The translations under genes were made by a program, and so were the position numbers. The notes below the pieces were generated by a model. The model made no database searches. It was not told where the DNA came from and saw only the letters and a program-made list of their open reading frames with translations. 64,000 nucleotides of DNA, taken from the NCBI GenBank assembly GCA_023430885.1, contig JAEYYH010000032.1:19279-83278 (forward strand). Reading direction: 5' to 3'. This document shows, in pieces, positions 4,289 through 34,660 of this stretch; the first letter of the stretch is position 1; each line of letters begins with the position of its first letter. The stretch comes from Bacillota bacterium (lineage in GTDB: Bacteria > Bacillota_I > Bacilli_A > RF39 > UBA660).

Positions 4289-4669
4289 TTATAGATCTGT
4301 TATTGTTAGTTCAGTAGCTGATGAAACTTTAGTAGCAGTAAATCTACTACTTGATATAGACACAGTTGAATTACATAAATTATCTAATGAAATTGTTCCA
4401 GTTAATGGTAATTCACCTTGAATATTCACAGCTGGTGATGCAACGCCATCATCAAATGAATACGATGTAGTTAATGCTTCGCCTTTAATAAGTTGAAGTT
4501 GACATGCATCTTCTACAGCTCCTACTATATTATTAGCACTTGCTTCAAATGTTCCTCTTCTACTTTCTCTAACAATAGTATTAACTACTGGGATAGCAAT
4601 TAATGCGATTATTGCTAGTATTAGAATTACAGCTAGTAATTCAATTAATGTAAATCCTTTTCTACTCAT
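4289..4669 (-). CDS. prepilin-type (class III signal peptide) pilin/pseudopilin-like protein
   Basis: MSRKGFTLIELLAVILILAIIALIAIPVV: canonical G-FTLIE prepilin cleavage/methylation motif; the first ~120 aa are paralogous to the N-terminus of the 19444..21153 protein. Confidence 0.7.
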   Translation of the reverse strand: MSRKGFTLIELLAVILILAIIALIAIPVVNTIVRESRRGTFEASANNIVGAVEDACQLQLIKGEALTTSYSFDDGVASPAVNIQGELPLTGTISLDNLCNSTVSISSSRFTATKVSSATELTITDL

Positions 4670-4797: not shown

Positions 4798-4806
4798 ATT
4801 CTATAT

Positions 4807-6324
4807 TTAATTATTAAGTGCTCTTAAAAAAGGATAACCATTATTTATAGTTGGGCTTATATTCCATATGTTTGTAAAATCCCAACCTATATAACTGTTT
4901 TTATTTTTAGCTTGAGTAGTTGTTAACCCTGCACCTAAATCAAAACTTTGATAAGGAATACCGGAACTTTCCATATCCCAATAAGAATTTGTTATTGTCG
5001 CACTATAATACCATCCAACAAGTCCTTCTTTAGCACCTGATGTATTTTGAATTACTTGACCAGTACTATAGCAATTTTCGACAGTTGCCATCCAAACGTA
5101 ACCAGCAAAACCACCTATGTGGCCGTAACTACTAGAGTTTATTACTGTTACATTAGCATACGAATTCCTTATAGTTTTATTGTTTCTTCCAACAAAGCCT
5201 CCGGTCATCATTGATGTTCCGCCTACATAAATATTTTCAACTTTACCTGTAGCATAAGACTCAGATATTGCCCCTTCGTTCTGCCCAATAAATCCTCCAA
5301 CATATTCATTAGAACCCTTTACATCGGCATTTATGACATATGATTTACTTATTTTACCAGATGATTCACCAATAAGTCCTCCTGTGTGGGCTGCTCCTCT
5401 AACAACTGGATTAATAATAGAACAGTTTTCTATTACTCCAGCACTACTTGTGTGTCTGCCCATTATTGTTCCTGTAATCCAATCTCCAGTTACATTTGCA
5501 TTTTCCAATACTATATTTTTGAAATCACCAGAGCCGGCAGTAAATAATCCTACACTATCACCAGTAGGTCTATTTATATATAAATTTTTTATACGAAAGT
5601 TGTTACCATTAAAATCACCAGAAAATTGATTTGATGATGTAATCCCACCAGTATCTAGAAAATTGCCTATTGGTTTCCAACCGGCACCAGTAGTCCAAAG
5701 AGCTTTATTTGCAGCAGAATTCAAATAACTTGCATTATCATTGAAATCTAAATTTCTCATTAATTCATAATTTGATGAACGCGTAGTTGAATTAGATTCA
5801 ATATATTTAAGTTGTTCTAAGTACCATATATCTAGATAACTATCGCCATCAGAATCTTTAAGATTATTTGCTACTTCTCCAGCTGGAGGCATAGGTGAAA
5901 AAAATCCATCCAAATTACAATCTTCTTTTGTTTTTGTCGTCAAAATTACACTATCGTCACCAAAAATTTTTTCAGCACAATATGTCCCATCATGAATGGC
6001 AATAGCTATTTCACCATCATTACGAATTATAACATAACCATAATCGGGATTCTTTCCAGAATAATCTAGTTTATTTAATGACGGTTCAAATACCTGCACT
6101 CCATTTACATAATTATAAGCCATACTATCTTTTGTTCCATCTAATGCATCTTTCGTATACCTTACTACTGCCGCATCAATTATAGTATGCGCTGTAACTT
6201 CAAATGCACCTTTTTTTGCTTGGGCTGTTATTTTTGAAACTGTTGGTATAGCTATTAAAACTATTACTCCTAATATTAAAATTACTGCTAAAAGTTCGAT
6301 TAATGTAAAACCGGCTTTTTTCAT
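4807..6324 (-). CDS. prepilin-type N-terminal domain protein with C-terminal GLUG-motif repeats
   Basis: MKKAGFTLIELLAVILILGVIVLIAIP prepilin motif; C-terminal half carries repeated GG(L/F)(I/V)G(E/Q/R)N...Y blocks (GGLIGESSG, GGFIGQNEG, GGFVGRNNK, GGFAGYVW) typical of the GLUG motif. Confidence 0.65.
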   Translation of the reverse strand: MKKAGFTLIELLAVILILGVIVLIAIPTVSKITAQAKKGAFEVTAHTIIDAAVVRYTKDALDGTKDSMAYNYVNGVQVFEPSLNKLDYSGKNPDYGYVIIRNDGEIAIAIHDGTYCAEKIFGDDSVILTTKTKEDCNLDGFFSPMPPAGEVANNLKDSDGDSYLDIWYLEQLKYIESNSTTRSSNYELMRNLDFNDNASYLNSAANKALWTTGAGWKPIGNFLDTGGITSSNQFSGDFNGNNFRIKNLYINRPTGDSVGLFTAGSGDFKNIVLENANVTGDWITGTIMGRHTSSAGVIENCSIINPVVRGAAHTGGLIGESSGKISKSYVINADVKGSNEYVGGFIGQNEGAISESYATGKVENIYVGGTSMMTGGFVGRNNKTIRNSYANVTVINSSSYGHIGGFAGYVWMATVENCYSTGQVIQNTSGAKEGLVGWYYSATITNSYWDMESSGIPYQSFDLGAGLTTTQAKNKNSYIGWDFTNIWNISPTINNGYPFLRALNN

Positions 6325-6510: not shown

Positions 6511-9321
6511 TTATAATAATGGTTTTAAGAATTTTCCCGTATAGCTTTCATCAATTTTTATTATATCTTCTGGAGTACCTGTTGCAATAATAGTTCCACC
6601 ACCATCGCCACCTTCTGGACCCAAATCAATAATATAATCAGCAACTTTAATAACATCTAAGTTATGTTCAATAACAACAACTGTATCGCCATTATCAACT
6701 ATTCTTTGTAATATTACTAACAATTTCTTAATATCATCAGTATGTAAACCAGTTGTTGGCTCATCTAATATAAATAAACTCTTACCAGTTGGTTTCTTTT
6801 GTAACTCTTTGGCAAGCTTGACTCTTGCTGCTTCACCACCTGAAAGTGTTGGAGCACTTTGACCTAATTTAACATAAGAAAGTCCAACATCTAAAAGCAT
6901 TTGTAGTTTTGTCTTAACTTTTGGCACATTTTCAAAAAATTCTAATGCTTCATCAACACGCATTTCTAAAACATCATATATGTTTTTGTCTTTATATTTA
7001 ATTTGAAGTGTTTCAGTGTTATATCTTGTACCTCCACATACATCACAAGGAACATATACATCTGGTAGAAAGTGCATTTCTATTCTCTTTACGCCATCGC
7101 CCCAACAAGCTTCACAACGACCACCTTTAACATTAAATGAAAATCTTCCTTTATCGTAACCACGAATTTTTGCTTCTTTTGTTTGTGTAAACACATCTCT
7201 TATATCATCAAATACACCTACATAAGTTGCAGGATTACTTCTCGGAGTTCTTCCAATTGGTGATTGTGATATATCAACAACTTTATCAATATTATCTAAG
7301 CCTTTTATTGACTTAAACTTACCCGGTTTCTCTTTAGTTCTATATAAATTAGCGGCTACAGCCTTGTATAAAATTTCATTTATCAAACTACTCTTTCCAG
7401 AACCAGAAACACCAGTTACACAAGTAAATGTTCCAAGAGGAAATTTTGCATCAATATTTTTTAAATTATTTTCTGTAGCACCTTTAATTTCAATAAATTT
7501 TTTATTTCCTTTTCGTCTAGTTTCTGGCACTTCTATCTTAAGTGCACCTGTCAAATATTTACCAGTTAAACTATTAGGATTCTTCATTACTTCTTCTGGA
7601 GTACCTTCTGCTACAACTTGCCCACCATGTAATCCAGCTCCTGGACCAATATCCACTAAATAATCAGCCGCTAACATTGTATCAGTGTCATGTTCGACAA
7701 CTACTAATGTATTTCCTATATCGCGCATTTCAATTAGAGAATTAATTAATCTTTGATTGTCTCTTTGATGTAGACCAATACTCGGTTCATCAAGGACATA
7801 TAAAACACCAGTTAATCTTGATCCAATTTGTGTTGCAAGTCTAATTCTTTGTGCCTCGCCACCACTTAAAGTACCAGCAGTTCTTGCAAGCGTTAAATAC
7901 TCAAGGCCAACATTTATCAAAAAGTTTAATCTTGATTCTATTTCTTTTATAATTAGTTTTGCTATTTCAGCTTGCTCTTTTGTAAGTTCTAGATTATTTA
8001 TAAATTTATATAAATCTCTAATACTTAAAAGAGTTACCTCATATATATTTTTACTATTTATTTTAACAGAAAGAACAGAATCAGCCAGTCTTGCTCCATT
8101 ACAAGTTTGACATGGAAGTTCAGTCATATACTGTTCAATCCAATCTCTTATCCAGCCACTTTTAGTCTCTATATATCTTCTTTCTAGATTTGTTATTATA
8201 CCTTCATAAAAATCTCTAGATGTTCTTGTATTACCATTTTTAGCTACATAATTAAACTCAAGAACATCAGGTGTGCCATATAATAATATATCTAGTTTTT
8301 CTCTACTTATTTTTTTAATTGGGCTATCCATATTAATATTATAACGTTTACATACAGTATCAATTTGAGTATATATGATATTGGTTGTGTCATTTAAATT
8401 TATAGCAACTATACCACCATCATTAATACTCTTATCTCTATCTGGTATTACTAGATCCTCATCTATCTTCATTTTAATTCCTAAACCTTTACAGTCTGGG
8501 CATGCTCCATATGGGGCATTAAATGAAAACATTCTAGGTTCTAATTCTGGTAAACTAAAATCACAATCTGGACAAGCGTATTTTTCACTCATTATAATAA
8601 GGTCTTTTCCTATTACATCAATAACAACTTTACCATTTGAAAGCTTGCTAGCTATCTCAATTGCCTCATAAAGTCTACTTCTTATATCAGCTTTAATTAT
8701 TAATCTATCAACAATAGCTTCAATATTATGTTTTTTATTTTTTTCAAGAATAATTTCTTCACTTAAGTCATAATCTTCGCCATCAATTCTAACTCTTGCA
8801 TAACCATCTTTTCTAAGATCATCAAGAACATCTTTTTGTGTACCTTTTTCGCCATATACAATTGGACTAAGTACTCTTATTTTAGTTCCCTCTTCTAAAG
8901 ATAATATTTGGTTAGTCATTTCTTCTACACTTTGGCTAGATATAGGTCTATGATGGGTTGGACAATAAGGTATACCTATTCTAGCATATAGTAGTCTTAA
9001 GTAATCATATATTTCTGTTACAGTTCCTACAGTACTTCTAGGATTTTTATTAGTAGTCTTTTGATCAATACTTATAGCTGGTGATAATCCTTCAATAGAA
9101 TCAACATCAGGCTTTTCCGAACCACCTAAAAACTGTCTAGCATAAGCACTTAGACTTTCAACATATCTTCTTTGCCCCTCTGCATATATTGTATCAAAAG
9201 CAAGAGAAGATTTTCCTGAACCTGATACACCTGTCATAACAATCAATTTATTTTTTGGTAACGTTATGTTAATATTTTTTAAATTATTTTCACGTGCACC
9301 TTTAATTATTATATTTTCCAT
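6511..9321 (-). CDS. uvrA: excinuclease ABC subunit A
   Basis: 936 aa, two ABC ATPase modules (GVSGSGKSSL twice), zinc-finger Cys pairs, LSGGEAQR signature; unmistakable UvrA. Confidence 0.95.
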   Translation of the reverse strand: MENIIIKGARENNLKNINITLPKNKLIVMTGVSGSGKSSLAFDTIYAEGQRRYVESLSAYARQFLGGSEKPDVDSIEGLSPAISIDQKTTNKNPRSTVGTVTEIYDYLRLLYARIGIPYCPTHHRPISSQSVEEMTNQILSLEEGTKIRVLSPIVYGEKGTQKDVLDDLRKDGYARVRIDGEDYDLSEEIILEKNKKHNIEAIVDRLIIKADIRSRLYEAIEIASKLSNGKVVIDVIGKDLIIMSEKYACPDCDFSLPELEPRMFSFNAPYGACPDCKGLGIKMKIDEDLVIPDRDKSINDGGIVAINLNDTTNIIYTQIDTVCKRYNINMDSPIKKISREKLDILLYGTPDVLEFNYVAKNGNTRTSRDFYEGIITNLERRYIETKSGWIRDWIEQYMTELPCQTCNGARLADSVLSVKINSKNIYEVTLLSIRDLYKFINNLELTKEQAEIAKLIIKEIESRLNFLINVGLEYLTLARTAGTLSGGEAQRIRLATQIGSRLTGVLYVLDEPSIGLHQRDNQRLINSLIEMRDIGNTLVVVEHDTDTMLAADYLVDIGPGAGLHGGQVVAEGTPEEVMKNPNSLTGKYLTGALKIEVPETRRKGNKKFIEIKGATENNLKNIDAKFPLGTFTCVTGVSGSGKSSLINEILYKAVAANLYRTKEKPGKFKSIKGLDNIDKVVDISQSPIGRTPRSNPATYVGVFDDIRDVFTQTKEAKIRGYDKGRFSFNVKGGRCEACWGDGVKRIEMHFLPDVYVPCDVCGGTRYNTETLQIKYKDKNIYDVLEMRVDEALEFFENVPKVKTKLQMLLDVGLSYVKLGQSAPTLSGGEAARVKLAKELQKKPTGKSLFILDEPTTGLHTDDIKKLLVILQRIVDNGDTVVVIEHNLDVIKVADYIIDLGPEGGDGGGTIIATGTPEDIIKIDESYTGKFLKPLL

Positions 9322-9505: not shown

Positions 9506-11560
9506 TTAACCCATTTTTTTTGATAAAATATTCATCACATTATTATATATTTCTTGTTGTTGTTCTTCTGTTAATTCATCATATTTAACTGATCCAGTAG
9601 TAGTTTCTTCAATTGATGCTGAAGTTTTTACAGTACCATTAATATTTACAGAAATACTATTTGTTTTTTCTTTTCCTGTATACTCTTCGTAAGTTATAAT
9701 ACTATCTAAGTTATACTCTTCACCTGCTGTTACTACTTCTATATTAGTACTGAAAGTTAATTTGTATTCATTTTTTTCATTCTTAAAGTCAGCAGTTACT
9801 TCATATAATGTTTTTGTACAATTTATCTTAATATAACCTAATTTTTCATCTTCTGATTTATATATATTTATTGTTAAAATTTGATCTTCTTTTACTAATT
9901 CTGCAAACCCTTTTAGATCATTATCTTCAATTATATAAATTCGTGGATTAGTATCTTTTCTATACTGGATACTAACTGTTTTTTCATCATATGATACTTC
10001 TGTACAATCTTGATATTCAGTTGTTGTATAGTCATCTGTTGTATATTCATCTGTTGTATAGTCATATGTAGTATTATCATTTCCTTCATAATCGTATATT
10101 GTATAATCATCAACTTGATTATCACTTGTCGTAGTATCATCATCTACTGAAGTTACTTTATAATTTTTAGTATTTGATTTCATGTTTTCTAAAACACCAT
10201 CTGATGTATCTTCTAAACCATCTTCTGATGTATTATCATAACAATTATCATAACTATATTCTTGATTATAATACTTATAGTCAAAATCAATACCTTGTAC
10301 ATTGTTTGTTAGTTTACTTGTATATACAGTATATGTATATGTACTCATATGTTCTTCGTCGATATCATCTATACTAGAATTCATATCATAACTAGCAAAA
10401 TCTTCATATATATTAGTTACAATTTCATTCGCACGTTCATCAGCTTTAATATCAGTAATTATCAAATCTAATAATTCAAGAATTTGTTTATCATTATATT
10501 CTAATTTTAAAGAATTAACCTGCTTCTTCTCACCATCAATAGTTATTTCAGCTGTATCTTTAACAAAATCTTTTTCATTTACATTGTTTATAAAACTTTT
10601 TTGTACAAAATTATATAGATAATTATAATCTTCTATATCATTATAATTTGTTGAAGATAAAGCATCTTTAAGCTCTGCAACTTCTATGTATTTGTCAAAT
10701 ATTTTATTTAGAAATACATATCCAGTATCTGATGTTGTTAATAATTTTACTCCTGCTATTTCTTCTTTTGTATCACTAACATTTAATTCTAATAATGTTT
10801 TTTCTGCAGTTTTACTGAAATTATAGTCAAATTTCATACTATTTAAGATATCAATTATTTGATTAGTATTTGCATTATTTGTTTTGCTCATTTGAATATT
10901 AAAAGTACCTTTTTCTGAATATTCATCAGAATCATTTAATGAAAGCGGTGTTAAAAAGTATTCTTTAAAGTTTTCTAATTGTTTAACACTATTATTTATA
11001 ATAACTTTTTCATTTTTACTGTAAGCAAAATATGTTCCCCCGCCTACTAAGCATAAAGTTAATATTATAAGAATAAATACTAGTGCTTTTATGCCCTTCT
11101 TTTTTTTGATTGGAGGCATAGTTTGGACCATCTCATTATTTGGAACAGATTGTTCCATTTGAACTGGCACTGGGGTTACTGTAGGCTCTTCTACTGGATA
11201 TACACTTGGTATACTTACAGGTTGGGTTACTTGAACTGGCTCTGGTATTCCAATAGGTTCTTCTACTGGATATGCACCAGGTATACTTACAGGTTGGTCT
11301 AATTGAACTGGCTCTGGTATTCCAATAGGCTCTTCTACTGGATATACACCAGGTATACTTACAGGTTGGTCTAATTGAACTGGCTCCGGTGTTCCAATAG
11401 GTTCTTCTACTGGATATACATTTGACATACTTACAGATTGGTTTACTTGAACTGGCTCTGGCATTCCAATAGGTTCTTCTACTGGAGGTATAGTTGGCAT
11501 TTCTTTTGGAAAAGTATTGTTGTTTTCACTACTTCCTAAATTATTATTCATTTTATTCAC
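9506..11560 (-). CDS. membrane protein with N-terminal proline-rich 23-aa tandem repeats and large extracytoplasmic domain
   Basis: 684 aa; four copies of YPVEEPIG(I/T)PEPVQLDQPVSIPG before a single TM helix; remainder acidic Asp/Thr/Tyr-rich. Confidence 0.5.
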   Translation of the reverse strand: MNKMNNNLGSSENNNTFPKEMPTIPPVEEPIGMPEPVQVNQSVSMSNVYPVEEPIGTPEPVQLDQPVSIPGVYPVEEPIGIPEPVQLDQPVSIPGAYPVEEPIGIPEPVQVTQPVSIPSVYPVEEPTVTPVPVQMEQSVPNNEMVQTMPPIKKKKGIKALVFILIILTLCLVGGGTYFAYSKNEKVIINNSVKQLENFKEYFLTPLSLNDSDEYSEKGTFNIQMSKTNNANTNQIIDILNSMKFDYNFSKTAEKTLLELNVSDTKEEIAGVKLLTTSDTGYVFLNKIFDKYIEVAELKDALSSTNYNDIEDYNYLYNFVQKSFINNVNEKDFVKDTAEITIDGEKKQVNSLKLEYNDKQILELLDLIITDIKADERANEIVTNIYEDFASYDMNSSIDDIDEEHMSTYTYTVYTSKLTNNVQGIDFDYKYYNQEYSYDNCYDNTSEDGLEDTSDGVLENMKSNTKNYKVTSVDDDTTTSDNQVDDYTIYDYEGNDNTTYDYTTDEYTTDDYTTTEYQDCTEVSYDEKTVSIQYRKDTNPRIYIIEDNDLKGFAELVKEDQILTINIYKSEDEKLGYIKINCTKTLYEVTADFKNEKNEYKLTFSTNIEVVTAGEEYNLDSIITYEEYTGKEKTNSISVNINGTVKTSASIEETTTGSVKYDELTEEQQQEIYNNVMNILSKKMG
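11143..11503. repeat. tandem 69-bp coding repeats (about 4.5 copies)
   Basis: Near-identical 69-nt units visible in DNA (ctggtattccaataggttcttctactggatatacaccaggtatacttacaggttgg...). Confidence 0.7.
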
Positions 11561-11650
11561 TCCGTCCTATTATAAATTATAGCAAAATTAGACAAAAAAA
11601 GAAACAAAAAATGTTTCTTTTTAAAATGCTTATAACTAAGCTTCTATTTA

Positions 11651-12118
11651 TTACATAAAGAAATATGTATAAATAGAGAAAGCAATTACCAAAACAAGTA
11701 CAACTCCAAGTACAATAATCATTAGCTTTTTGCTTGAACTGTTTTTTGCTGGAGCTACTGGAGCTTCTGCAGTAACAGGAGCATTTGCGTCAGCAGTCAC
11801 AGTTGGCTCAGTTACAGGAGTAACAGGTGCTACTGGAGTAATAGTTGGTACTACTACTGGAGTTACTGGTGCTACCGTTGGAGCTACTGGAGCTACTGGT
11901 GTTACCGTTGGAGCAACTGGTGCTACTGTTGGAGCAACTGGAGCAACTGGAGCTGCCATTGGTGCCGCAGGAGTTACTGGGGCTACTGTTGGAGCAACTG
12001 GTGCTACTGTTGGAGCTACTGGAGCAACTGGAGTAACAGTTGGTGTTACTACTGGAGTTACTGGAGTAACTGGAGTGTTGTTTATATTTGGTATTTCTTT
12101 ATTATCCATTCTAATCAC
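11651..12118 (-). CDS. Pro/Thr/Val/Ala-repeat protein with C-terminal TM anchor
   Basis: 155 aa, about 100 residues of [12 protein letters not shown] repeats then [25 protein letters not shown] hydrophobic tail; extended -10 (TGcTATAAT) upstream. Confidence 0.45.
11758..12079. repeat. 9/15-bp microsatellite-like coding repeat (ACTGGAGCAACTGTTGGAGCT...)
   Basis: Highly regular short-period repeat giving PT-rich frame on minus and Gly/Ala/Thr-rich mirror ORFs on plus. Confidence 0.7.
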
Positions 12119-16854: not shown

Positions 16855-17511
16855 TTAACTTAAATTGTTTCTTAATTTTGTTAAAACTTTTTGTTCTTTT
16901 CTGGATACTTGAACCTGTGTCATGCCTAAATCGTTAGCTGTTTCTGTTTGCGTCTTATCATTAAAATATCTGTCTTTTAATAATTCAAGTTCAGCTGAAT
17001 CTAACTTTGTTAATTCTTGTTTTAAAGCAATTAAAGTATTAATATCTAAAATTCTATCAGGAATAGTCTCGTGAAGCGTTACTTCTTTTGAATCACTTGC
17101 AATAGGTTCATCAATACTTTTAACTTCCCTTTTACTATTTAAAGCTTCGTTAACTAATATTTCTGGTATCCCAAGAAACTGTGATAGTTCTAAAGATGTT
17201 GGCATCCTATATAGCTTCTGTGACAACATATTTGAAGCCTGCTCTATCTTAGCATTTAAAGACGAGATGTTCCTACTTACTTTAATTGATTTATCCTCTC
17301 TTATATATTTTTTCATTTCACCTAAAATATAAGTGTATGCATAAGTCGTAAACTTTATATTAAAACTTTCATCATAGTTATGATAAGCTTTCATAATTCC
17401 TATTACTCCCACTTGAAATAAGTCTTCTTTATTTTTATAATTACTAAAATAGTTAGTAATTGAATATATTAAATTTTGATTTTCTAGTATTATTTGCTCA
17501 ATTGGTTTCAT
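16855..17511 (-). CDS. sigma-70 family sigma factor of the SigF/SigG/SigB group
   Basis: 218 aa; region 2 (DLFQVGVIGIMKAYHNYD...FTTYAYTYILGEMKKYIRED..KVSR) and region 4 HTH (TQTETANDLGMTQVQVSRKEQK) closely match sporulation/stress sigma factors. Confidence 0.8.
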   Translation of the reverse strand: MKPIEQIILENQNLIYSITNYFSNYKNKEDLFQVGVIGIMKAYHNYDESFNIKFTTYAYTYILGEMKKYIREDKSIKVSRNISSLNAKIEQASNMLSQKLYRMPTSLELSQFLGIPEILVNEALNSKREVKSIDEPIASDSKEVTLHETIPDRILDINTLIALKQELTKLDSAELELLKDRYFNDKTQTETANDLGMTQVQVSRKEQKVLTKLRNNLS

Positions 17512-17522
17512 TTTTTATCTCC

Positions 17523-17864
17523 TTAAATATTAAATATATTTAATGCTGTTAATTCGTTATTCGTTATAGGAATGTAACTTTGCGTACTCCGAGCCAGCGC
17601 TCTTTTTACATTACCGTTTATATTACATATAATAGACTCTCCTTTGTTTTGCTTACATAATTTATAATTATATATTAATGAATTTATACCATTAATATCT
17701 ATTTCATTTACATTTTCTAAATTAAAAACAATATTTCTTATACCATTATCAAAAACCATTTCTGCAACTTCTTCGTATAATTTATTACAGGTATCACCAT
17801 TTAATTTTCCATCTAATCTAATAAATAAAATTCCTTTTATAAATTCCATTTCTATTCCAAGCAT
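17523..17864 (-). CDS. STAS-domain anti-sigma-factor antagonist (SpoIIAA/RsbV-like)
   Basis: 113 aa, STAS pattern, located 12 bp upstream of the sigma factor gene. Confidence 0.6.
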   Translation of the reverse strand: MLGIEMEFIKGILFIRLDGKLNGDTCNKLYEEVAEMVFDNGIRNIVFNLENVNEIDINGINSLIYNYKLCKQNKGESIICNINGNVKRALARSTQSYIPITNNELTALNIFNI

Positions 17865-17930: not shown

Positions 17931-19316
17931 TTATTTTTTCACAATTCTTTTTTCGACAAGTTTATTCCCTACAAATATAATTGTCAAACATAATAATATT
18001 AGAGATATATTAGATGATTGATTATTTATTTTAGACTCTTCTTTAAGTTCTTGTCTTTCTTCCAAAATTTTGATTTTTGTTTTGTAATTATTTACTTCTT
18101 CTTTTAATCTATTTATTTCATTAGTACTATCAATTATATTTTCTTTTATCTCCAAGTTCTTTTGATTAACACTATAATTTGCTGTCTCAGAAGCATCTAG
18201 TAAATAATCGACATATTGTTCTTGTAATTTTAAAGCATCTAAATAATTTTGTTTAATATCAACTTTTACATTAGTTGATATTGTTTTAAAAGGAAGTATA
18301 AAATTAATATCATAAATTCCATTAACATTAAGATTCAAATTACTTGTTATTTTTATATCTTTTAAAGTACTTTCCAAAATAAAATCATTTAGATTAACAT
18401 CTTTATTTTCTATAGTCATATCGTCATTTAATACTACTTTATCGCGAATTTTATATCGGTAATATGTTTTATAATCATTATAATCTATCTTATAACTAGT
18501 ACTTGCTTCATCAACATATAAATCTAAATATTCCTTTGTAATTATTTTATATTCATATTTGATAAAAATATTGCGATATATAGGATCTTCATTTACTATT
18601 TTGCCATTAACATTTTCATCACAATATGATTTAGTAGTACTATTTAAAAGCAGTTCATCAACATTACTAAAGTCTCCTATTGCCAAATCTATGTTGTTAT
18701 TATCACTATTATCTTCCACAGTTTTTACAAGAATTTTATCACCAAATGGATTGTTTTCATTATTCATAGATAAAGTGAGTTTTACATCTTTGGCACTTTG
18801 TTTATCAATAGATATATATATTTTTAAATTAGCTAAATTATATTCTTCGTCAATATAAAAAATAAATGTATCATTACTATACATATAAAAATCGTCATTG
18901 TTCATTAATACCTTTTCATTTTTTAAATCGTAAACTTTAATGGATTCAATATGTATATTTTTACTCAAATTTTTCAAATAAAAATACTTTAATTCTTTAA
19001 AAGGTTTGTATGTGTAAGAAGTACATTCTTCTATTTCAGCATTTAAATCTAATAAATTTATATTTGTATTCCAATTTGAATATCTAATAGAATAATTACC
19101 TGTTTTTTCATATAAAGAATCTTCTAAATATTCATAACTTATTTTATCTGTATATGCATGATAAAAATTTTTGCTTTCAACTTTTAAAATATCACTTGAG
19201 TTAATTTTTCCCTCACTATAATCTGTATAATCACCGTACTCACTATAATAAGTTTTAGCGTGTACTGGTTTAACACATATCCATAGCACCAGAAAAAAAA
19301 CAAAGAATTTTTTCAC
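17931..19316 (-). CDS. secreted protein with signal peptide, C-terminal coiled coil and C-terminal TM anchor
   Basis: 461 aa; N-terminal signal (MKKFFVFFLVLWICVKPVHA), Asn/Tyr-rich body, heptad-like KE-rich segment, final hydrophobic stretch. Confidence 0.4.
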   Translation of the reverse strand: MKKFFVFFLVLWICVKPVHAKTYYSEYGDYTDYSEGKINSSDILKVESKNFYHAYTDKISYEYLEDSLYEKTGNYSIRYSNWNTNINLLDLNAEIEECTSYTYKPFKELKYFYLKNLSKNIHIESIKVYDLKNEKVLMNNDDFYMYSNDTFIFYIDEEYNLANLKIYISIDKQSAKDVKLTLSMNNENNPFGDKILVKTVEDNSDNNNIDLAIGDFSNVDELLLNSTTKSYCDENVNGKIVNEDPIYRNIFIKYEYKIITKEYLDLYVDEASTSYKIDYNDYKTYYRYKIRDKVVLNDDMTIENKDVNLNDFILESTLKDIKITSNLNLNVNGIYDINFILPFKTISTNVKVDIKQNYLDALKLQEQYVDYLLDASETANYSVNQKNLEIKENIIDSTNEINRLKEEVNNYKTKIKILEERQELKEESKINNQSSNISLILLCLTIIFVGNKLVEKRIVKK

Positions 19317-19443
19317 TTATTTCACCTCCTCATTTATATACTATAAGAAGGTAGAGTCATTTCCTTTTTAGATTAGCATTTATTTAGATAAAACAATCAA
19401 TTAAAACATCTTAATAAAAAAATGCGCATAATGCACATTCTTT

Positions 19444-21153
19444 TTATGATCCAGTAATAGCTAAAGTTACACGAAATGCATAATCTGCTGCTACTCCAGA
19501 TGAACCACTAAATGTAAAAATTCCTGCTCCTGCCCCTGCAGACCAATTACCACTTCTAATTACCCAAGGAAATCCATTATATGCAAAATGAGCATAATCA
19601 TGATACCAGGAACTCTCATATCTACTTGTTGCATCTGTATCAATTGTACTTTGAGCAAAACTTCCCATTTCTTTAGTTGCATCTCCTAAAGAACCTCTTG
19701 AATATGCGGTTATATCTTTCCAAGTTGTTCCATAATCATATAAATCAAAGTACTTACTTATAGGAAAAGCAATTCCTGTTGTAAGAGAGCCAGTAGTACC
19801 GTATAGACCATTAAAGCCTGAATTACTTGCATCACTATTTCCTGATAATGGAGCATTTGTTCCGGTGCTATCTTGAACTACTCCCATTACATACTCCCAA
19901 GCTCCACCAGCCATATCATATATTCCAGTAATATTACCTGTTGTACTAGCTATATATCCATTAGCTGTGTTATAAGCATTTTCACATCCGGCATAACCAG
20001 CTGTTGTTGATGATGTTGCAGGCTCAGTACTAGCTGCGCATCCTGTAATATAGTCACTACTATTATTGTAACGCATATTACTGTTTAGTCCATATATTGA
20101 ATGAGAAAGATACGCTACTGCACCCCACTCTATATTTTTCATAAGATGAGTATCAACTTTACTAGCTTCAATTCCATAAATATTACCATTACTTTCCATA
20201 TCTCTTATAGTTGTAAATATTTCTGATACATTCATATTTCTTAAACTTGCTATGTTTGGTTTAATTGTAGTTGTTGCTATATTCCCAGTAGTTTCAAATT
20301 TTCCTGCCCAAAATCCATTTAAATCTTCAGTACCAAATTTAAATGCTGGGTGTGTCAAATACTGACCAGTAGTAGTACCTGTTGATGTAGTAGTATTCTT
20401 ATTTTCAAATACAATATTAATTGTTTTAATATTACTGCTATTGGTTGCTGTTACATCAATATTTGTTCCATCATTAAATAATTCATATCGGTATCTAGGA
20501 ATCCATACCAAATAAGTTAATATATCATTTTCTGTAATTGTAGTACCACTTTTATAAGTTCCATCACCATTTATATAATTACTTCTGCTAGAAGATGTCA
20601 CAGTTACAGCATTAGCCCATCTCTTACTTGAATAGCTGTACCAGTTAGAATATATATCCGCTAGTGCTACAGTTCCGTCATCAGATATTAACACCGGTAT
20701 CATTCCTGTTTCTAGTTCTGGATCAGTGCCATTTAAAGTAGTATCTTTGTAAACAACAGGCGTTACTACCGAACCTTCTACTACTGTTATTTTATCTTCA
20801 GCAAATGTCTTAGTCGCAGTAAAAGTTCCATTAGTTAAATTTGCGGCTGTTTTACAATTACTATCGACATTTATTGTACCAGTAGTTGGCAATTTTCCCT
20901 TAACATTAAGTGAAGGAGATATATTTCCATCAGTAAATGTGTATGTTGTTGTAAGTTCTTCTTCTCTTAATAATTCTAGTTCACAAGCATTTTCAGCTGC
21001 TGTTAAAACATTTTCAACTGTTGTTGTAAATGCCCCTTTTTTACTAGTTTTAATAATATTATTCACAACGGGAACTGCTATTAGGGCAATTATTCCTAAT
21101 ATTAATATTACTGCTAATAATTCTATTAAAGTAAAACCTTTTTCTTTTATCAT
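19444..21153 (-). CDS. prepilin-type N-terminal domain protein with C-terminal FGE-sulfatase (SUMF1)-like domain
   Basis: MIKEKGFTLIELLAVILILGIIALIAVPVV prepilin motif; first ~125 aa paralogous to 4289..4669; C-terminal region contains GIYDMAGGAWEYVMG resembling the FGE-sulfatase signature G(L)(Y/F)DM(x)GNVWEW, and a terminal Gly/Ser/Ala-rich tail. Confidence 0.55.
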   Translation of the reverse strand: MIKEKGFTLIELLAVILILGIIALIAVPVVNNIIKTSKKGAFTTTVENVLTAAENACELELLREEELTTTYTFTDGNISPSLNVKGKLPTTGTINVDSNCKTAANLTNGTFTATKTFAEDKITVVEGSVVTPVVYKDTTLNGTDPELETGMIPVLISDDGTVALADIYSNWYSYSSKRWANAVTVTSSSRSNYINGDGTYKSGTTITENDILTYLVWIPRYRYELFNDGTNIDVTATNSSNIKTINIVFENKNTTTSTGTTTGQYLTHPAFKFGTEDLNGFWAGKFETTGNIATTTIKPNIASLRNMNVSEIFTTIRDMESNGNIYGIEASKVDTHLMKNIEWGAVAYLSHSIYGLNSNMRYNNSSDYITGCAASTEPATSSTTAGYAGCENAYNTANGYIASTTGNITGIYDMAGGAWEYVMGVVQDSTGTNAPLSGNSDASNSGFNGLYGTTGSLTTGIAFPISKYFDLYDYGTTWKDITAYSRGSLGDATKEMGSFAQSTIDTDATSRYESSWYHDYAHFAYNGFPWVIRSGNWSAGAGAGIFTFSGSSGVAADYAFRVTLAITGS

Positions 21154-21208: not shown

Positions 21209-23530
21209 TTATACATAAGTATAATTTTCTATTGATTTTATATTTACTTTATTATTACCATCTATTACTTCGCTAATTATAATACTTTCAAAAACATCAC
21301 GTATTATTTTATCTATTTTACGGGCACCATACTCTTTGTAATTAGATTTACTTATTATCTCATCTATTACTTTTTTATCGTAATTAACTTTAATATCTTT
21401 TTTAAGATATTTTTCTTTTATTTTTTGTAGTTTTTCAGTAATTATTTTATTTATAGCCTTTATATCTAAATAATTAAAAGATATTGTGTCATCTATACGA
21501 TTAATAAAGGATGTTGAAAATGATTCTTTTTGTTTTGTTAATAAATTATTTTCATCTTTTATAAAGCCAATTGGGTTATTTTCAAATCCTACATTAGTAG
21601 TCATTATAATAATTACATTATTAAAAAATATCTCACGTCCAGTAGAATCCTTAATTTTACTATCTTCAAGTATCTGAAAGAAAAGGTTTAATACATCATG
21701 ATGGGCTTTTTCTATTTCATCTAGTATTAGAACAGTATTAGGCTTATTTCTTATATCATCTAGTATGTTATGATTATCACTATAACCAACATAACCAGGA
21801 GGAGCTCCTACTATTTTACTTATAGAATGTGGTTCCCTATACTCACTCATATCAAGTTTAACTACGTTCTTTTTACCAACCATATATTCTCCAAATAATG
21901 TAGCCAGGTATGTTTTTCCCACACCAGAAGGTCCTGAAAATAAGAATGAATAGCATTTATTGTCTTCCTTCAAGCCTAATTTAATTCTTTTGCCTATTCT
22001 TACAATTTGATTAATCGCATACTGCTGTCCAATAATATTTTCTTTTAGTTTTGATTCTAGTTTATTAATACTTTTGGTATCAGTAGATATAATTTCATAT
22101 ACTGGCACTTTAGTACGAGTTGAAATGACTTTGGCAACATCTTCTTTGTTTACTTTATTTAGTGTCTTTTTCTTATTTAGTTTTAATTCTGTTAAATTTA
22201 TCTTATTTTGGATTAAATTTTCTTTATTTTTAAGTTCCTTCGCTGATACATAATCATCATCTAAAATGCTTCTTCTTTTGTCTAATTTAACTGTTTCAAC
22301 TTCTAGTAATAAGTCGTTATATTCTTTAAGCAATTTATTTTCTTTTAAACTAGCCTTAGCACAAACTTCGTCAAGTATATCAATTGCTTTATCTGGTTGC
22401 TTTCGATCGTAAATGTATTTCTCTGATAACTCAATTATAAGATCTATTATTTCATCACTTAATCTAACCATATGATAATTCTCATATATTGGTTTTAATT
22501 TTAGTAATATCTTTTTTGTATCCTCTTTACTTGGAGACTCTATAAATACTTTTTGAAATCTTCGCTCTAAGGCAGCATCATTTTCAATATATTTTTTATA
22601 TTCTTCAGTAGTAGTTGCTCCAATACATTTTAATTTATTTCTAGCTAGAGATGGTTTAAATATGTTTGATGCATCTATGGCTCCTTCAGCACCGCCGGCG
22701 CCTACTAAAGTATGAATTTCATCTATAAAAAGAATTATTTCCTCATTATCCTCTACTTCTTTTAATATTTTTTTTAGACGTTCTTCAAATTCGCCACGAT
22801 ATTTTGTTCCTGCTACAGTACTTGCCATATCGACACTTATAATTCTTTTATTTTTAAGACTATTTGGTACTTGCTTATTTACTATACGTTTGCTAAGTTC
22901 CTCTACTATAGCTGTTTTTCCTACTCCAGCATCTCCAATTAATAATGGATTATTCTTTGTCCTACGCATAAGAATTTCAATAACCCTATTTATTTCTTCT
23001 TCTCTACCTATTACTGGATCTAATTCGTTATTTGAAGCCTTTTTATTTAAATCGATTCCTATTTCTTCTAGTAAAAGTTTTTTACTCTTTTTCTTTTTAT
23101 CTACTTTATTTGTGTAAAATTCCTTATATAAACTATCTATATCAACTTCCATTGATAAAAGTATCCTTATTGCAATACCTTCACCCTCATCTAGTAAGTT
23201 TAAAAATAAGTGTTCTATCATAACTTCACTATTTGAATCTTTACTATCAACAATAGAGTTTTCAATAATTCTTCTAAGCATAGGTGTATATAAGAACCAT
23301 TCACTTTGCTTGCTACCTACTCCTATAATACTTATTATCTCTTTTTTAACTTTTTCATAGTCTATATCAAATTCTGTCAGTTTTTTGCTAACATTATTTT
23401 TTCCCTTTAGTATAGCAAGTAAAAGATGTTCACTTCCTATATAGGGATGCTTTAAATTACTCATCTCTTCTTTGGCAGTTACTATAACTATTCTTGCTTC
23501 TTCTGAAAAGTTACCAAACATAATAATCAT
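21209..23530 (-). CDS. ClpC/ClpE-like class III AAA+ chaperone (two nucleotide-binding domains)
   Basis: 773 aa; Clp N-domain repeat at N-terminus, Walker A GDAGVGKTAIVE and second GPSGVGKTYLA, coiled-coil middle domain. Confidence 0.85.
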   Translation of the reverse strand: MIIMFGNFSEEARIVIVTAKEEMSNLKHPYIGSEHLLLAILKGKNNVSKKLTEFDIDYEKVKKEIISIIGVGSKQSEWFLYTPMLRRIIENSIVDSKDSNSEVMIEHLFLNLLDEGEGIAIRILLSMEVDIDSLYKEFYTNKVDKKKKSKKLLLEEIGIDLNKKASNNELDPVIGREEEINRVIEILMRRTKNNPLLIGDAGVGKTAIVEELSKRIVNKQVPNSLKNKRIISVDMASTVAGTKYRGEFEERLKKILKEVEDNEEIILFIDEIHTLVGAGGAEGAIDASNIFKPSLARNKLKCIGATTTEEYKKYIENDAALERRFQKVFIESPSKEDTKKILLKLKPIYENYHMVRLSDEIIDLIIELSEKYIYDRKQPDKAIDILDEVCAKASLKENKLLKEYNDLLLEVETVKLDKRRSILDDDYVSAKELKNKENLIQNKINLTELKLNKKKTLNKVNKEDVAKVISTRTKVPVYEIISTDTKSINKLESKLKENIIGQQYAINQIVRIGKRIKLGLKEDNKCYSFLFSGPSGVGKTYLATLFGEYMVGKKNVVKLDMSEYREPHSISKIVGAPPGYVGYSDNHNILDDIRNKPNTVLILDEIEKAHHDVLNLFFQILEDSKIKDSTGREIFFNNVIIIMTTNVGFENNPIGFIKDENNLLTKQKESFSTSFINRIDDTISFNYLDIKAINKIITEKLQKIKEKYLKKDIKVNYDKKVIDEIISKSNYKEYGARKIDKIIRDVFESIIISEVIDGNNKVNIKSIENYTYV

Positions 23531-30705: not shown

Positions 30706-31782
30706 TTATTTAATCATACCATTTGATAGCAATATATATAGTATACAAAATGCACCGTATATAATTGTAAGCAGGCAAATGAATACTATACTTGTAAAAC
30801 CGTTATATTTTTTATTAAGATCCTTCATAGTTAATGCTTTAACTTTTGGCTGAACTTCTAAAGTTTCTGGACCTTTTTGAATTTCTTGTTGTTTTTGCAT
30901 TAGTCTTCTTTTTTCTACAATTCTTTTTAATATTACTTTTTGATCATCAGTTAGCGAATCGAATCTGTTATTTAATGTGAATTCAAGTTCATAATCATCC
31001 ATTTGTTCAAAAATTTGTTCAGCGGGATTTTCTACTGTTACAGCTGTTTCAATTCCATTGTCATTAATTGCTTGGACATCTTCTGAAACTGTTTCTACGC
31101 CCTTCTCATCAGCTTTTCTAATTTCCATCTGCCCTAAAGTATTAAGATGAGTATAATATGTTTCACCAGTATCTCTATTAATATATATATTACGTTTTGT
31201 ATCTGCAACAAAATTATTTATATCCGTTTCTTGCATATGAATAATAGAAGCAAACTGTCTTCTTTCCTCCGGTGTTAAATCACGTTTATCAATATCAACT
31301 GTTGATACTAAGTTAGCTTCTTCTTTTTCTTTTTGCATTGCATCAATTATTTCTTCTCTATTTTGGACACCATTTGTAGTTCTATAATCCATGCTTGAGT
31401 TTTGCTTATCTTGAAATTGAGTTACAAAGTCATCTTTACTCATATTATCATCAAGTACTGTATAAGTATCATCTGGATTTTCTACCTTTATATATTCTTT
31501 ATCATCCACTTTAAAACCAGTTACATTATCTAAATTAAGACTTGATGTATTAACTTTAGTCTTATCATAATAATCTAAAATTATTGTAGCTATCTTATTT
31601 AAATCTTCAACGTTATGCTCTATTCCATAAGATTCTAAACTTCTTAACATTTCAGAATTATTTGCAACCATCTCCGGAATATTTTTTAAATATTGAGCTA
31701 ATGCCTCTTTACTTTCAAATTCACCATTATTAATTCTGCCTTTAATATCATCAATAAAATTTTCGTCATAAAATTCACTCAT
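30706..31782 (-). CDS. hypothetical C-terminally membrane-anchored protein
   Basis: 358-aa acidic soluble region followed by a single C-terminal TM helix. Confidence 0.4.
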   Translation of the reverse strand: MSEFYDENFIDDIKGRINNGEFESKEALAQYLKNIPEMVANNSEMLRSLESYGIEHNVEDLNKIATIILDYYDKTKVNTSSLNLDNVTGFKVDDKEYIKVENPDDTYTVLDDNMSKDDFVTQFQDKQNSSMDYRTTNGVQNREEIIDAMQKEKEEANLVSTVDIDKRDLTPEERRQFASIIHMQETDINNFVADTKRNIYINRDTGETYYTHLNTLGQMEIRKADEKGVETVSEDVQAINDNGIETAVTVENPAEQIFEQMDDYELEFTLNNRFDSLTDDQKVILKRIVEKRRLMQKQQEIQKGPETLEVQPKVKALTMKDLNKKYNGFTSIVFICLLTIIYGAFCILYILLSNGMIK

Positions 31783-32058
31783 ATTATCACCTATTTTAAT
31801 TATATCACAAATATAATTATTAACAATTTATATAATGTAACTATTTAAACTTATTTTTATATGTCAACTAAAATTAGAAAATTATTTTATTTTTCTTATA
31901 AAAGCTGTTTTTTGTATAATAATCCAAGGAATTAATGTCAATTTTCGCCTTATTTTACATAAAATTTGACGCTTAATTGACATTTTTGTAAAAGAAAATA
32001 ATTGTAAATAAAAAAAATAAAAGATATAATTAATTTATAAGAGAAAGGGGTCTAAAGT

Positions 32059-32691
32059 ATGCGTATACTCAAAAAAGCAAGATTTGTTTTAGTATTAATT
32101 TCTTTTTCTGTATGTCTTGGTTTAATGAGTAGTACTTATTCAAGATATGTTGCAGGTACCACTAGTAATATTGAAGTACTATTTGCTAAATGGCAAATAC
32201 TAGTTAACAACACTGATATTACAAGTAATACAAGTTCTTCGATAACATTTGTACCCGTTATTGAAGAAAATAACTATGTTGAAGCTAATACTGTTGCACC
32301 TTCTTCAAAAGGATACTTTGATATAGCCGTTGATCCTAGTAACGTAGGAGTTTCATTTAAATATACAATTAATTTAGCAGTAGCAAATGAAAATATGCCT
32401 GACTTGATGATTACAAAATATTCAATTATTCCTTCTACTTATGTTGAAGGAGATCCACTTGAAGTTACTAACTTAACTGATAACACTATAACAAACACAT
32501 TAAATTTTGATAAAAATATTACGTCATTTAAATTCACACCTTTTACTATCAGAGTCTACTTTGAATGGTACGAAGGTACAGGTGAAACAATGACTGATGT
32601 TGAAGATACAGCTGCTGGATTATCTGCTGTTACTGATAATACAAAATTTCAAATGACCGCCAATATTAATTTCGAACAAATCTTTGAATAA
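32059..32691 (+). CDS. small secreted protein with SipW-cognate-like signal peptide (possible TasA/camelysin-like)
   Basis: 210 aa; only plus-strand gene; N-terminal h-region then STYSRYVAGTT; RBS aaaggggtctaaagtATG. Confidence 0.45.
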   Translation: MRILKKARFVLVLISFSVCLGLMSSTYSRYVAGTTSNIEVLFAKWQILVNNTDITSNTSSSITFVPVIEENNYVEANTVAPSSKGYFDIAVDPSNVGVSFKYTINLAVANENMPDLMITKYSIIPSTYVEGDPLEVTNLTDNTITNTLNFDKNITSFKFTPFTIRVYFEWYEGTGETMTDVEDTAAGLSAVTDNTKFQMTANINFEQIFE

Positions 32692-32791
32692 AATATATAT
32701 GTATTTAAGAAGTAGATTAAATTTCTACTTCTTTTTGTGAGATAAAAAAAACAACATTTCAAATGTTGTTTCAATATATAAACATATTTCA

Positions 32792-34021
32792 TTACAAGTT
32801 TGTTTTTGGTGCTATTATTACTGGTATTACATTACAACTTGTTGTTTTAGCTTCGCCATACATTTTAGAATTAATTTCATCAATTTTTTTAACTGCAAAG
32901 CCGTTATTACTATTATATTCATTACTTGTCCAATAACAGTTAGCTGAAGAGATATAATTAAATTTTTCATTTGAGAAATTATAATGACCATTTGAACTAA
33001 CTGCTTTAGCAATTTCTGTATTCATACGAGTACCATAATTTAATTTTCCTATAATTAAATCAGATATATTATCTCTAATTAAAGTTGATTCAATTACATC
33101 TTTTGAAGTTATTTTTAATAAATCTTCAACCGTTAAGGCTCTTGTCCCTACCGTCCATCCACTTGTTACGGACGACAGTGTCATAGCATAATCATTAAAA
33201 CTACTACTTAAGTAAGTATTTTTGACATTTGGTAACAAAGTAACTGTATCATCACCCAATGTGTTATTCGTATCTATTACGTATGTTGTAAGACAGGTTG
33301 TACTAATTTCTGTACACGCTTCATTATTTACAACATCATATAAAATAACGTCACCTAAATCATATTTAGGATCACTGGTTGTATTAGATTCTATGTATTG
33401 TTCAGCTTTTACACTAATTACAATTTGAATTGATGGTTTAATCTGATAATTCGCATCATTATTTTTTTTTGTTATTTCACTCTGTTCAAATTTATAGGCT
33501 TCTGTTCCCCATAAACTGTCTAGAGAATCAATACCAGAATCTAAAGGCCAAGATACGGAAACCTCAAATGAACTTTCCTCACCTTTAGCTAAAATATAAT
33601 TTTTACTTAAATTAATATTAATATGAAATGGATAATCGTGTGATAATACATCTTCAACAGATTCAGAAGTTGTTGCCGTATCATCTATTACATAATTATC
33701 GGCTTCATCGCCTAAAATTCTAGCAGAAACAATTGAATAACTAAGCTGAGCATCAGAATCACCCAAATTTTTAATGTTGACTAGTTCATCCACTATATCC
33801 ATTCCTGGATAAATATCAGATAAAGATATAACGATATCATTAGAAACCGGTTGACCATCTTTATCCAATTCTATATACCAAGCTTTAACACCTATTTCAG
33901 TAGAAACACTTGATAAACCACTATAAGCAAACCAAGCAAGTGTTACAGATATAAATGAAATTACTATAAAGGTTACAGACATTATATTTAATCTTAAATA
34001 TAATTTATGCTTTTTTTCCAA
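32792..34021 (-). CDS. secreted TasA-like protein with SipW-cognate signal peptide
   Basis: 409 aa; signal VISFISVTLAWFAYSG; segment IYPGMDIVDELVNIKNLGDSDAQLSY resembles the TasA/camelysin N-terminal PGD...N-G-S block; directly downstream of the sipW-like gene (sipW-tasA arrangement). Confidence 0.5.
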   Translation of the reverse strand: MEKKHKLYLRLNIMSVTFIVISFISVTLAWFAYSGLSSVSTEIGVKAWYIELDKDGQPVSNDIVISLSDIYPGMDIVDELVNIKNLGDSDAQLSYSIVSARILGDEADNYVIDDTATTSESVEDVLSHDYPFHININLSKNYILAKGEESSFEVSVSWPLDSGIDSLDSLWGTEAYKFEQSEITKKNNDANYQIKPSIQIVISVKAEQYIESNTTSDPKYDLGDVILYDVVNNEACTEISTTCLTTYVIDTNNTLGDDTVTLLPNVKNTYLSSSFNDYAMTLSSVTSGWTVGTRALTVEDLLKITSKDVIESTLIRDNISDLIIGKLNYGTRMNTEIAKAVSSNGHYNFSNEKFNYISSANCYWTSNEYNSNNGFAVKKIDEINSKMYGEAKTTSCNVIPVIIAPKTNL

Positions 34022-34066
34022 TTATATCACCTCGCCGTTCACTTATATTCTTTGTTTATATTATTA

Positions 34067-34651
34067 CTAATTACTACTAATTTTTTTTCTTCTCTCGTCT
34101 TCTTTTTCTAGCATCGTTGAAAGTATTTCAGATCCTATAATGAAAAGCAAAGGAAGTATTATAAATAAATAAAATCCTATAGTTGTGCCAACAATTCGAT
34201 AAATTATTGAAAGTATAATTGATCTATAAATAACAACGCCATATATCTGGCTTTCAGAAATAGTAGGATCTTCAAATAAGTTTGCTAATCCTTTTGTTTG
34301 GAATAGATATTTTCCATCTTCATCAGTTTTAATACTAACAACTTCATGGGTAATAACTTTATCTTTGAAATCACCAGCTGTTCCTAGATAACTAACTGCA
34401 TCACCAACTTTAATTGTTGATGGATCAACTTCTTTTGAAATTAACACATCTCCAATCTTATACTTGGGCTCCATACTTCCTGAAATTACTGTAAACATTC
34501 TATAATTGAAAAAAGATATTTTATTGTCACTGAAGCGTTGCAAACATACAACAATTATAAATCCAACAAGTATTACAACAAACATTATTTGTGCTATAGT
34601 TGCGACAATTTTATATGCTTTGCTGTTTTTAATTTCCATTAATTTTTTCAT
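34067..34651 (-). CDS. sipW: signal peptidase I, archaeal/ER type (SipW-like)
   Basis: 194 aa; TM1, catalytic VISGSMEPKYKIGD (Ser) and ITHEVV (His), C-terminal second TM typical of SipW. Confidence 0.75.
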   Translation of the reverse strand: MKKLMEIKNSKAYKIVATIAQIMFVVILVGFIIVVCLQRFSDNKISFFNYRMFTVISGSMEPKYKIGDVLISKEVDPSTIKVGDAVSYLGTAGDFKDKVITHEVVSIKTDEDGKYLFQTKGLANLFEDPTISESQIYGVVIYRSIILSIIYRIVGTTIGFYLFIILPLLFIIGSEILSTMLEKEDERRKKISSN

Positions 34652-34660
34652 ATAAATAAC

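Follow-up and report, generated by a model that had tools for sequence, protein, structure and literature searches.

Modular pilins are thought to explain many of the functions of simple type IV filaments, and no natural protein diversifiers are more powerful than diversity-generating retroelements (DGRs), which reach their highest density in the gut. Known modular type IV pilins include Streptococcus sanguinis PilB, which carries a vWA module, and PilC, which carries a ConA-like lectin module (Raynaud et al. 2021, PMC8179133; Shahin et al. 2023), and the grafting of several modules onto one pilin scaffold is the pattern by which modular pilins are defined (PMC8179133). [quoted passage not shown] DGR-diversified tip adhesins of the type V pili of Bacteroides, together with TaqVP-like prophage proteins, have been reported by Macadangdang et al. 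(bioRxiv 10.1101/2024.11.15.621889). Here, we analyze a 64-kb stretch of DNA from a Bacillota bacterium (contig JAEYYH010000032.1, positions 19,279 to 83,278; hereafter the window), in which the gene at 19444-21153 joins a type IV prepilin N-terminus to a TaqVP-like module. We consider it reasonably probable that the gene product is a modular type IV pilin whose lectin module acts as a filament-borne adhesin or receptor-binding subunit, and that it is a fixed copy and not an FGE enzyme. The gene and the parts of its product are as follows.

19444..21153, minus strand: complete open reading frame (ORF) of 569 amino acids, a modular type IV prepilin with a C-terminal FGE-subtype CLec module.
21136..21153, minus strand: class III leader peptide MIKEKG (aa 1-6), from PF07963 and TIGR02532 matches above their cut-offs; cleavage after G6 is predicted.
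20776..21135, minus strand: mature pilin module (aa 7-126), with F+1, E+5, a long alpha-1 helix, a small beta-sheet head, Cys57 and Cys100.
20524..20775, minus strand: extension at the N-terminal end of the CLec-bearing module (aa 127-210), which contains the conserved motifs YKD..LNG.DPEL..MIPV and WY.Y..K.WANAV.
19447..20523, minus strand: FGE-subtype CLec fold (aa 211-569), whose homology to TaqVP, a DGR variable protein, is seen by Foldseek, profile and viral structure library (BFVD) comparison.
19882..19926, minus strand: motif GIYDMAGGAWEYVMG (aa 410-424), an FGE/CLec signature, inside the PF03781 match.
19468..19569, minus strand: equivalent of a DGR variable region (VR; aa 529-562, PWVIRSGNWSAGAGAGIFTFSGSSGVAADYAFRV), from alignment with the VR and template repeat (TR) of two relatives, L069 and L025; fixed here.

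The original prediction described an ORF at 19444..21153 (minus strand, 569 aa) with an N-terminal prepilin module of ~125 residues and a class III signal, and both are present as described. The protein starts with MIKEKG|FTLIELLAVILILGIIALIA, in which M-I-K-E-K-G6 precedes F7-T-L-I-E11; inspection of the sequence thus finds the G-1/F+1/E+5 processing site that had been set beforehand as a test of the assignment. The module occupies residues 1-126 and exceeds the curated cut-offs of both relevant models, with 28.1 bits for PF07963 at residues 3-26 (cut-off 21.2) and 29.4 bits for TIGR02532 (cut-off 16.3). Among 50 aligned homologs, F7, T8, E11 and L12 are invariant and G-1 is nearly so. An AlphaFold2 model built from this 50-sequence alignment, with a whole-protein predicted local distance difference test score (pLDDT) of 89.9 and a predicted template modelling score of 0.79, adopts a pilin fold with a helix at 9-62 and strands at 70-126 (pLDDT 74-90). 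Sequence searches of the PDB with the single protein or with the profile match the N-terminus to the alpha-1 helices of type IV pilins.

The pilin module has two paralogs in the window, ~13 kb from 19444-21153, neither of which appeared in the original prediction.

4289..4669, minus strand: stand-alone 126-aa type IV prepilin, paralog of the pilin module, identified by sequence and Pfam (50% identity).
4807..6324, minus strand: second modular prepilin of 505 aa, with a pilin module of the same type and GLUG repeats (PF07581), identified by Pfam (39% identity).

Residues 2-126 align with the stand-alone pilin without gaps (50% identity, E 9e-36), both cysteines being kept, and the module shares 39% identity with the N-terminus of the GLUG-repeat pilin. 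The stand-alone paralog and the AlphaFold2 model place the module boundary at about residue 126. The protein thus agrees with how Raynaud et al. (2021) define a modular pilin, namely by an N-terminal IPR012902 motif and a complete pilin module to which a further module, not specific to type IV pilus biology, is joined. The C-terminal module also occurs with non-pilin N-termini and is thus not specific to type IV pili. The three prepilins of the window form a small repertoire on one pilin scaffold; given that this scaffold carries a CLec module in one protein and GLUG repeats in another, the organism grafts different modules onto it. The architecture of the GLUG pilin, IPR012902-IPR011493, is likewise listed in PMC8179133. 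The 126-aa pilin is a candidate major pilin. In a related strain (L088, 5389-7265), no gene was called at the position of the GLUG pilin.

The C-terminal module is larger than first thought. It comprises about 440 residues (127-569), rather than the ~250 originally assigned to it, and folds in the AlphaFold2 model into one compact, well-folded unit (pLDDT 90). Its extension (aa 127-210) is kept in family members irrespective of the N-terminal anchor, as seen in family alignments and in the N-termini of the individual loci. Structure prediction had been named as a check on this region, and it reveals a defined, TaqVP-like fold: in a Foldseek search of the PDB at E<=1e-3, the only matches are the chains of 5vf4 (E 8e-12). 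The family profile also matches 5vf4 among PDB sequences (E 1.3e-5 and 1.7e-4), with three shared motifs in the alignment, HPAF..W.GKFE, N.EWGAVAYL and GIYDM.GG.WEYV. TaqVP is seen only by profile and structure search; the single-protein search of PDB sequences does not return it. The top BFVD match, with E 3.9e-12, is a phage protein labelled 'sulfatase-modifying factor enzyme-like domain'; tail-collar fibre proteins come next.

Does the C-terminal module act as an enzyme or as a binding protein? The original prediction raised the possibility of enzyme display. The module would then be a formylglycine-generating or related oxidase carried on a pilin. This alternative draws on the FGE-subtype fold and on a weak match to PF03781, and the FGE-like signature is indeed present at residues 410-424 (GIYDMAGGAWEYVMG), with D413, G416 and E420 invariant across the family. 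The sole PF03781 match in the protein, however, pairs residues 386-429 with profile positions 150-196 at 16.0 bits (E 0.01), short of the 23.3-bit cut-off. Sub-threshold matches (E<=0.1) occur in 23 of 50 family members, the best with E 7.8e-4. Membership in the Pfam FGE-sulfatase family is rejected on this ground, and the FGE-sulfatase-like assignment survives at the level of the fold, through the Foldseek match to TaqVP and the SUMF-like match in BFVD, but neither as a Pfam membership nor as an enzyme. The active-site residues of human FGE are Ser333, Cys336 and Cys341 (cited in PMC6328139). The window protein has cysteines only at positions 57, 100, 372 and 390; because none lies in residues 391-569, the C-terminal 179 residues where the catalytic pair would be located, that pair cannot be present. 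Moreover, the closest relatives are non-enzymatic binding proteins, namely TaqVP and, in the same FGE-type class, TvpA, which has no formylglycine-generating activity (PMC5758913). An FGE-like enzyme is thus rejected as largely refuted by the sequence, and we regard it as extremely improbable. Given the sub-threshold score and the cysteine-free C-terminus, the module is a binding module rather than an enzyme, and it is best read, from fold and sequence together, as a putative ligand-binding scaffold.

Because the best structural match is a DGR protein, all fetched loci were searched for VR/TR pairs. Complete DGR cassettes are found in six of the 80 genomic loci, two of which (L069, 46% identity; L025, 44%) encode full-length prepilin homologs of the window protein whose gene 3' ends are DGR VRs. 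In all six loci, a copy of the last ~60-145 nt of the gene lies about 120-220 nt downstream of the VR, and the mismatches between the two fall almost exclusively at the adenines of the downstream copy, the TR (21/21 in L069, 16/16 in L071, 15/16 in L025, 20/21 in L029, 19/21 in L012 and 6/6 in L007). The cassettes have the order target-TR-MSL-bAvd-RT, RT being the reverse transcriptase gene, and Pfam confirms MutS_I, bAvd and RVT_1 in L025 and L069. MSL is a known DGR accessory gene, and the TR-MSL-bAvd arrangement corresponds to the rarer 'architecture D' of Wu et al. (PMC5758913). Judged by these VR/TR pairs, full-length homologs of the window pilin are real DGR targets, a point that the original prediction had missed.

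Several further features of these cassettes were observed. Every family-linked DGR cassette has a small MSL gene, which encodes MutS domain I, between the TR and bAvd; it lies at 7487-7858 in L025 and 11842-12213 in L069, with equivalents in L007, L012, L029 and L071. The TRs of the family-linked cassettes are 72-81% identical to each other over their aligned parts, and the sequences suggest one DGR lineage that co-evolves with the target family. In L071, the whole target gene and its TR occur twice (3079-5336 and 6867-9124) with equal gene lengths, and the stretches that were compared, namely the final 260 nt of the gene with its VR and, separately, the TR, show 100% identity between the copies, which are either a recent tandem duplication or an assembly artefact. 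The only two relatives in a viral collection are the IMG/VR contigs L091 and L092, which are DGR-targeted, with 23/26 mismatches at TR adenines and a SipW-like N-terminus; their carriage by a prophage is putative.

The window protein combines the CLec fold with the C-terminal VR scaffold of a DGR target. In alignments, its residues 529-562 (PWVIRSGNWSAGAGAGIFTFSGSSGVAADYAFRV) correspond to NPWFIRGGNYNNGSNTGVFNFNNNTGGVNSNNSFRLV, which the TR of L069 encodes, and to the VR/TR peptide of L025. The scaffold residues W530, R533, G553 and R561 are invariant; variability across the family is highest at the positions that they enclose. This segment had been described as a Gly/Ser/Ala-rich tail; it is not of low complexity and forms a well-ordered part of the fold (pLDDT 94-97) that aligns with the DGR variable region. 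The 64-kb window, searched by blastn and repeat search, contains no TR-like repeat of the gene 3' end, and no RT was found in it by RT-motif scan and Pfam on every ORF of at least 100 aa, nor was Avd by Pfam on the same ORFs. The gene is accordingly rejected as the target of a local DGR.

A further alternative is active remote targeting, in which a DGR elsewhere in the genome would hypermutate the C-terminal surface of the protein in trans. The window covers only 64 kb of the genome, and remote targeting occurs in the family: the TR of L012 (2034-2177) matches VRs on two other contigs of the same metagenome-assembled genome (MAG; CAKOPG01), L016 (VRs at 484-627 and 6676-6819; 15/20 mismatches at TR adenines in one match and 22/25 in another) and, more weakly, L073 at 1739-1871 (17/32), which suggests, from these alignments, trans-diversification of several paralogs by one TR. 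A cognate TR that differs at adenines is present in the relatives L007, L012, L025, L029, L069, L071 and L091/L092. Against remote targeting of the window gene, none of seven family TRs compared with the window matches it. Its VR-equivalent also lacks the signature of active VRs, with 43% GC and 16 of 34 codons (47%) ending in C or T, the codons being mostly NNA, compared with 52-63% GC and 73-90% of codons ending in C or T (NNY) in the active VRs of relatives. Finally, four strain variants (84-89% identity) differ at 12.9% of sites in the VR-equivalent and at 13-14% in the rest of the C-terminal module. Since the TR comparison and the codon, GC and strain-variation tests are all negative, a remote DGR target is rejected as very improbable.

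Thus, the window copy is a fixed member of the family, given that it has neither a TR nor an RT, neither the NNY-codon nor the GC-rich signature and no excess of strain variation. The sequence patterns fit a situation in which the binding surface would be diversified by DGRs in some lineages and by ordinary evolution in others. We tentatively propose that type IV prepilins are DGR targets in gut Bacilli, that they would form a hypervariable type IV pilus adhesin system if assembled into filaments and that the window gene would be a fixed member of it.

The arrangement was originally called unusual. It is neither rare nor unrecorded. A module-only scan of 1.84 billion representatives returns 3,683 clusters at E<=1e-3, counted as representatives at 50% identity, and 1,123 at E<=1e-30, and a prepilin leader is present in about one-third of the top 150 module representatives. 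The architecture has also been catalogued: IPR012902-IPR005532 appears with eight proteins, without comment, in Dataset S1 of Raynaud et al. 2021 (PMC8179133). A search of a 90%-clustered protein collection yields at least 7,490 matches, mostly 'Bacilli bacterium' MAG proteins, and at least 587 loci are confirmed in GTDB species genomes. Nearly all of these loci belong to MAGs of uncultured gut 'Bacilli/Tenericutes/Mollicutes', whose hosts include humans, mice and rabbits, and a single genome often has three or four paralogs; the genes are placed singly among housekeeping genes. Relatives are found on only two IMG/VR contigs as against these at least 587 genomic loci; the family is therefore mainly cellular, and a phage origin is rejected. 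Most members are annotated only as 'prepilin-type N-terminal cleavage/methylation domain-containing protein', and the module family is almost wholly unannotated. Since the family falls below the PF03781 threshold, it mostly receives this prepilin-only annotation and would not be counted in such architecture surveys, and because PF03781 misses it, it deserves a model of its own.

The N-termini attached to the module include canonical prepilin leaders, GFAIS-type leaders, SipW/TasA-like 'SYAYF' signal anchors and others. Within a set of non-pilin examples (L007-L086, P0134-P0273), we observed SipW/TasA-like 'G.SYAYF' anchors, leaders of the 'NKGFAISG' type without E+5, anchors of the pattern 'GFA.V.TTL.I.G' and signal peptides with a 'VQ.AIDELY' motif behind them. 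The same set contains giant proteins, longer than 3,700 aa, in which the module occurs several times.

How would the window protein function? We propose that a prepilin peptidase encoded elsewhere would cleave the precursor after G6 and that the pilin module would enter a type IV filament, probably one whose main subunit is the 126-aa paralog (4289-4669). The bulk of the protein makes a place at the filament tip, which has been proposed for other modular pilins too, or a low abundance most likely; its lectin-fold surface would there be presented to a ligand, so that the protein would function as an adhesin or a subunit for receptor binding. The part of this fold that is rewritten by the DGR in relatives is its last ~35 residues.

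Several observations weigh against this filament-borne role. Pfam detected no pilB/pilC/pilD/pilM-type gene in the window, and none was found in the ~10 kb past either edge, which bears out the absence of a prepilin peptidase and an assembly ATPase from the window (also negative in motif scans) that had already been noted. The search for pilD, pilB and pilC homologs was extended beyond the window, as had been recommended, to ~1.4 Mb of family loci, where strict and loose simple-motif scans, which divergent genes could escape, revealed no pilus assembly genes either. In sister proteins, the same lectin module is borne by SipW-like signal anchors and GFAIS-type leaders, and the N-terminus may serve only as a surface anchor. 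As no machinery was found in the window or its ~10-kb flanks, pilus display is inferred.

Because no pilus assembly gene was found in the searched DNA, the main rival to filament display is a cell-surface binding protein outside filaments, in which the class III signal and the helix would only export the lectin module and anchor it near the envelope. Archaeal sugar-binding proteins with class III signals provide a parallel for such anchor-only use. In addition to the lack of pilus machinery near any family member, the module is used interchangeably on non-pilin signal anchors by paralogs of the same MAGs, and the prepilin genes are scattered singly among housekeeping genes. However, pilin genes are frequently unlinked to the assembly machinery, and E+5 is needed for filament assembly and not for cleavage. 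E+5 is invariant in 50 of the 50 aligned homologs, the whole ~120-aa pilin head is conserved and the window also encodes a 126-aa pilin of this type that stands alone. That E+5 never varies and that the head is conserved throughout argues for filament assembly, without amounting to proof, and we regard the anchor-only role as rather unlikely.

The window has a base composition of about 27% G+C and derives from a Firmicute that forms spores; just downstream of the 19444-21153 gene lie SpoVA genes and the genes of a STAS protein and a sigma factor. On its 5' side, the gene is adjoined by a ClpC-like AAA+ gene (21209-23530), and on its 3' side, by a 461-aa ORF without a Pfam match (17931-19316).

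19414..19443, minus strand: intrinsic-terminator-like hairpin and U-run directly after the TAA stop codon (-12.7 kcal/mol, z -3.9).

This hairpin of 13 bp, followed by the U-run, gives the gene its own 3' end. The 55-nt gap to the upstream clpC-like gene contains a Shine-Dalgarno-like AAGGGA and, as far as that gap extends, no convincing promoter or terminator. The earlier description of the gene as monocistronic is thus half supported by these sequence signals, at its 3' end but not at its start.

Other features of the window were noted in passing. At 16855-17864 (minus strand), a gap of 11 nt separates a SpoIIAA-like STAS gene from the sigma-70-family gene behind it; a SpoIIAB-like anti-sigma kinase gene does not intervene, in contrast to the Bacillus spoIIA operon. 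Two repeat-rich ORFs without Pfam matches lie at 9506-12118 (minus strand), one of 684 aa with 72-nt tandem repeats (11145-11504) encoding PVEEPIG.PEPVQ units and the other a Pro/Val/Thr/Ala-rich ORF of 155 aa that has periodic repeats of 9/12/21 nt (11795-12075) and ends in a hydrophobic anchor at its C-terminus. At 30706-47432, a long series of ORFs gives few or no Pfam matches; this series, which includes a 1,232-aa ORF, a DUF2357 protein and a 751-aa S24-peptidase-domain protein, may be a defence or mobile island. Three tandem paralogous ORFs of ~495-510 aa (48906-54691, minus strand), with 70-89% nucleotide identity in blocks, each encode a C-terminal Bact_surface_Ig-like domain (PF16403); a 396-aa ORF at 47598-48788 has a 62-nt segment in common with them, and an IS3-type transposase pair (HTH_Tnp_1, then HTH_21 and rve; 55263-56365, minus strand) adjoins them.

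The family links modular pilins to DGRs: in uncultured gut Bacilli with small genomes, it joins a pilin and a DGR-type binding scaffold in one protein, and some of its members are, on the evidence of their adenine-directed mismatches, actively diversified. The window gene itself is of moderate interest, and the family-level reading of DGR-diversified type IV pilins is of higher interest. The protein is a testable candidate for the attachment of poorly known commensals to hosts, glycans or other cells, and pairs of fixed and diversified homologs provide a means to study the gain or loss of DGR targets. In the literature searched, we found no paper that pairs DGRs with type IV pilins or prepilins, and no description in the DGR literature of a type IV pilin N-terminus on a DGR-type CLec protein. 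Pili are not mentioned by Roux et al. 2021 or Wu et al. 2018 (PMC5758913), and a 2024 survey lists a 'GspG-type pilin' domain among the rare domains that hold VRs.

How does the locus compare with the described systems? Like S. sanguinis PilB and PilC, the window protein combines a class III signal and a small pilin module with a bulky C-terminal module in a monoderm and has a predicted role in adhesion, and several modular pilins share one scaffold, here with CLec and GLUG modules. Unlike PilB and PilC, its module is an FGE-subtype CLec and its gene lies outside a pil locus, and its processing, piliation and binding are predicted. The catalogued IPR012902-IPR005532 entries have the same two-part architecture and are uncharacterised; the window family differs from them in falling below the PF03781 threshold. 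Compared with FGE/SUMF1 (PF03781) itself, the window module scores below the threshold, lacks the catalytic cysteines and has large insertions, as a binding scaffold and not an oxidase.

The window protein resembles the FGE-type CLec DGR proteins TaqVP (5vf4) and TvpA, category 'b' targets of Wu et al. 2018 (PMC5758913), in its fold, its sequence motifs and its C-terminal RGG...G.F...FR.V scaffold, and its homologs in other MAGs are DGR targets with an MSL-bAvd-RT cassette. Unlike TaqVP and TvpA, the window copy has no TR, RT or hypervariation, and its N-terminus is a type IV pilin. In concept, the relatives at L025 and L069 are similar to the Bacteroides type V adhesins, as both would be pilus-borne gut adhesins with a DGR-targeted binding surface. 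The Bacteroides adhesins are type V and assembled in a sortase-like manner, whereas these relatives are type IV prepilins from another phylum and another protein family. If the relatives are assembled into filaments, they would constitute DGR-diversified type IV pili, an analogue of the Bacteroides type V pili but independent of them.

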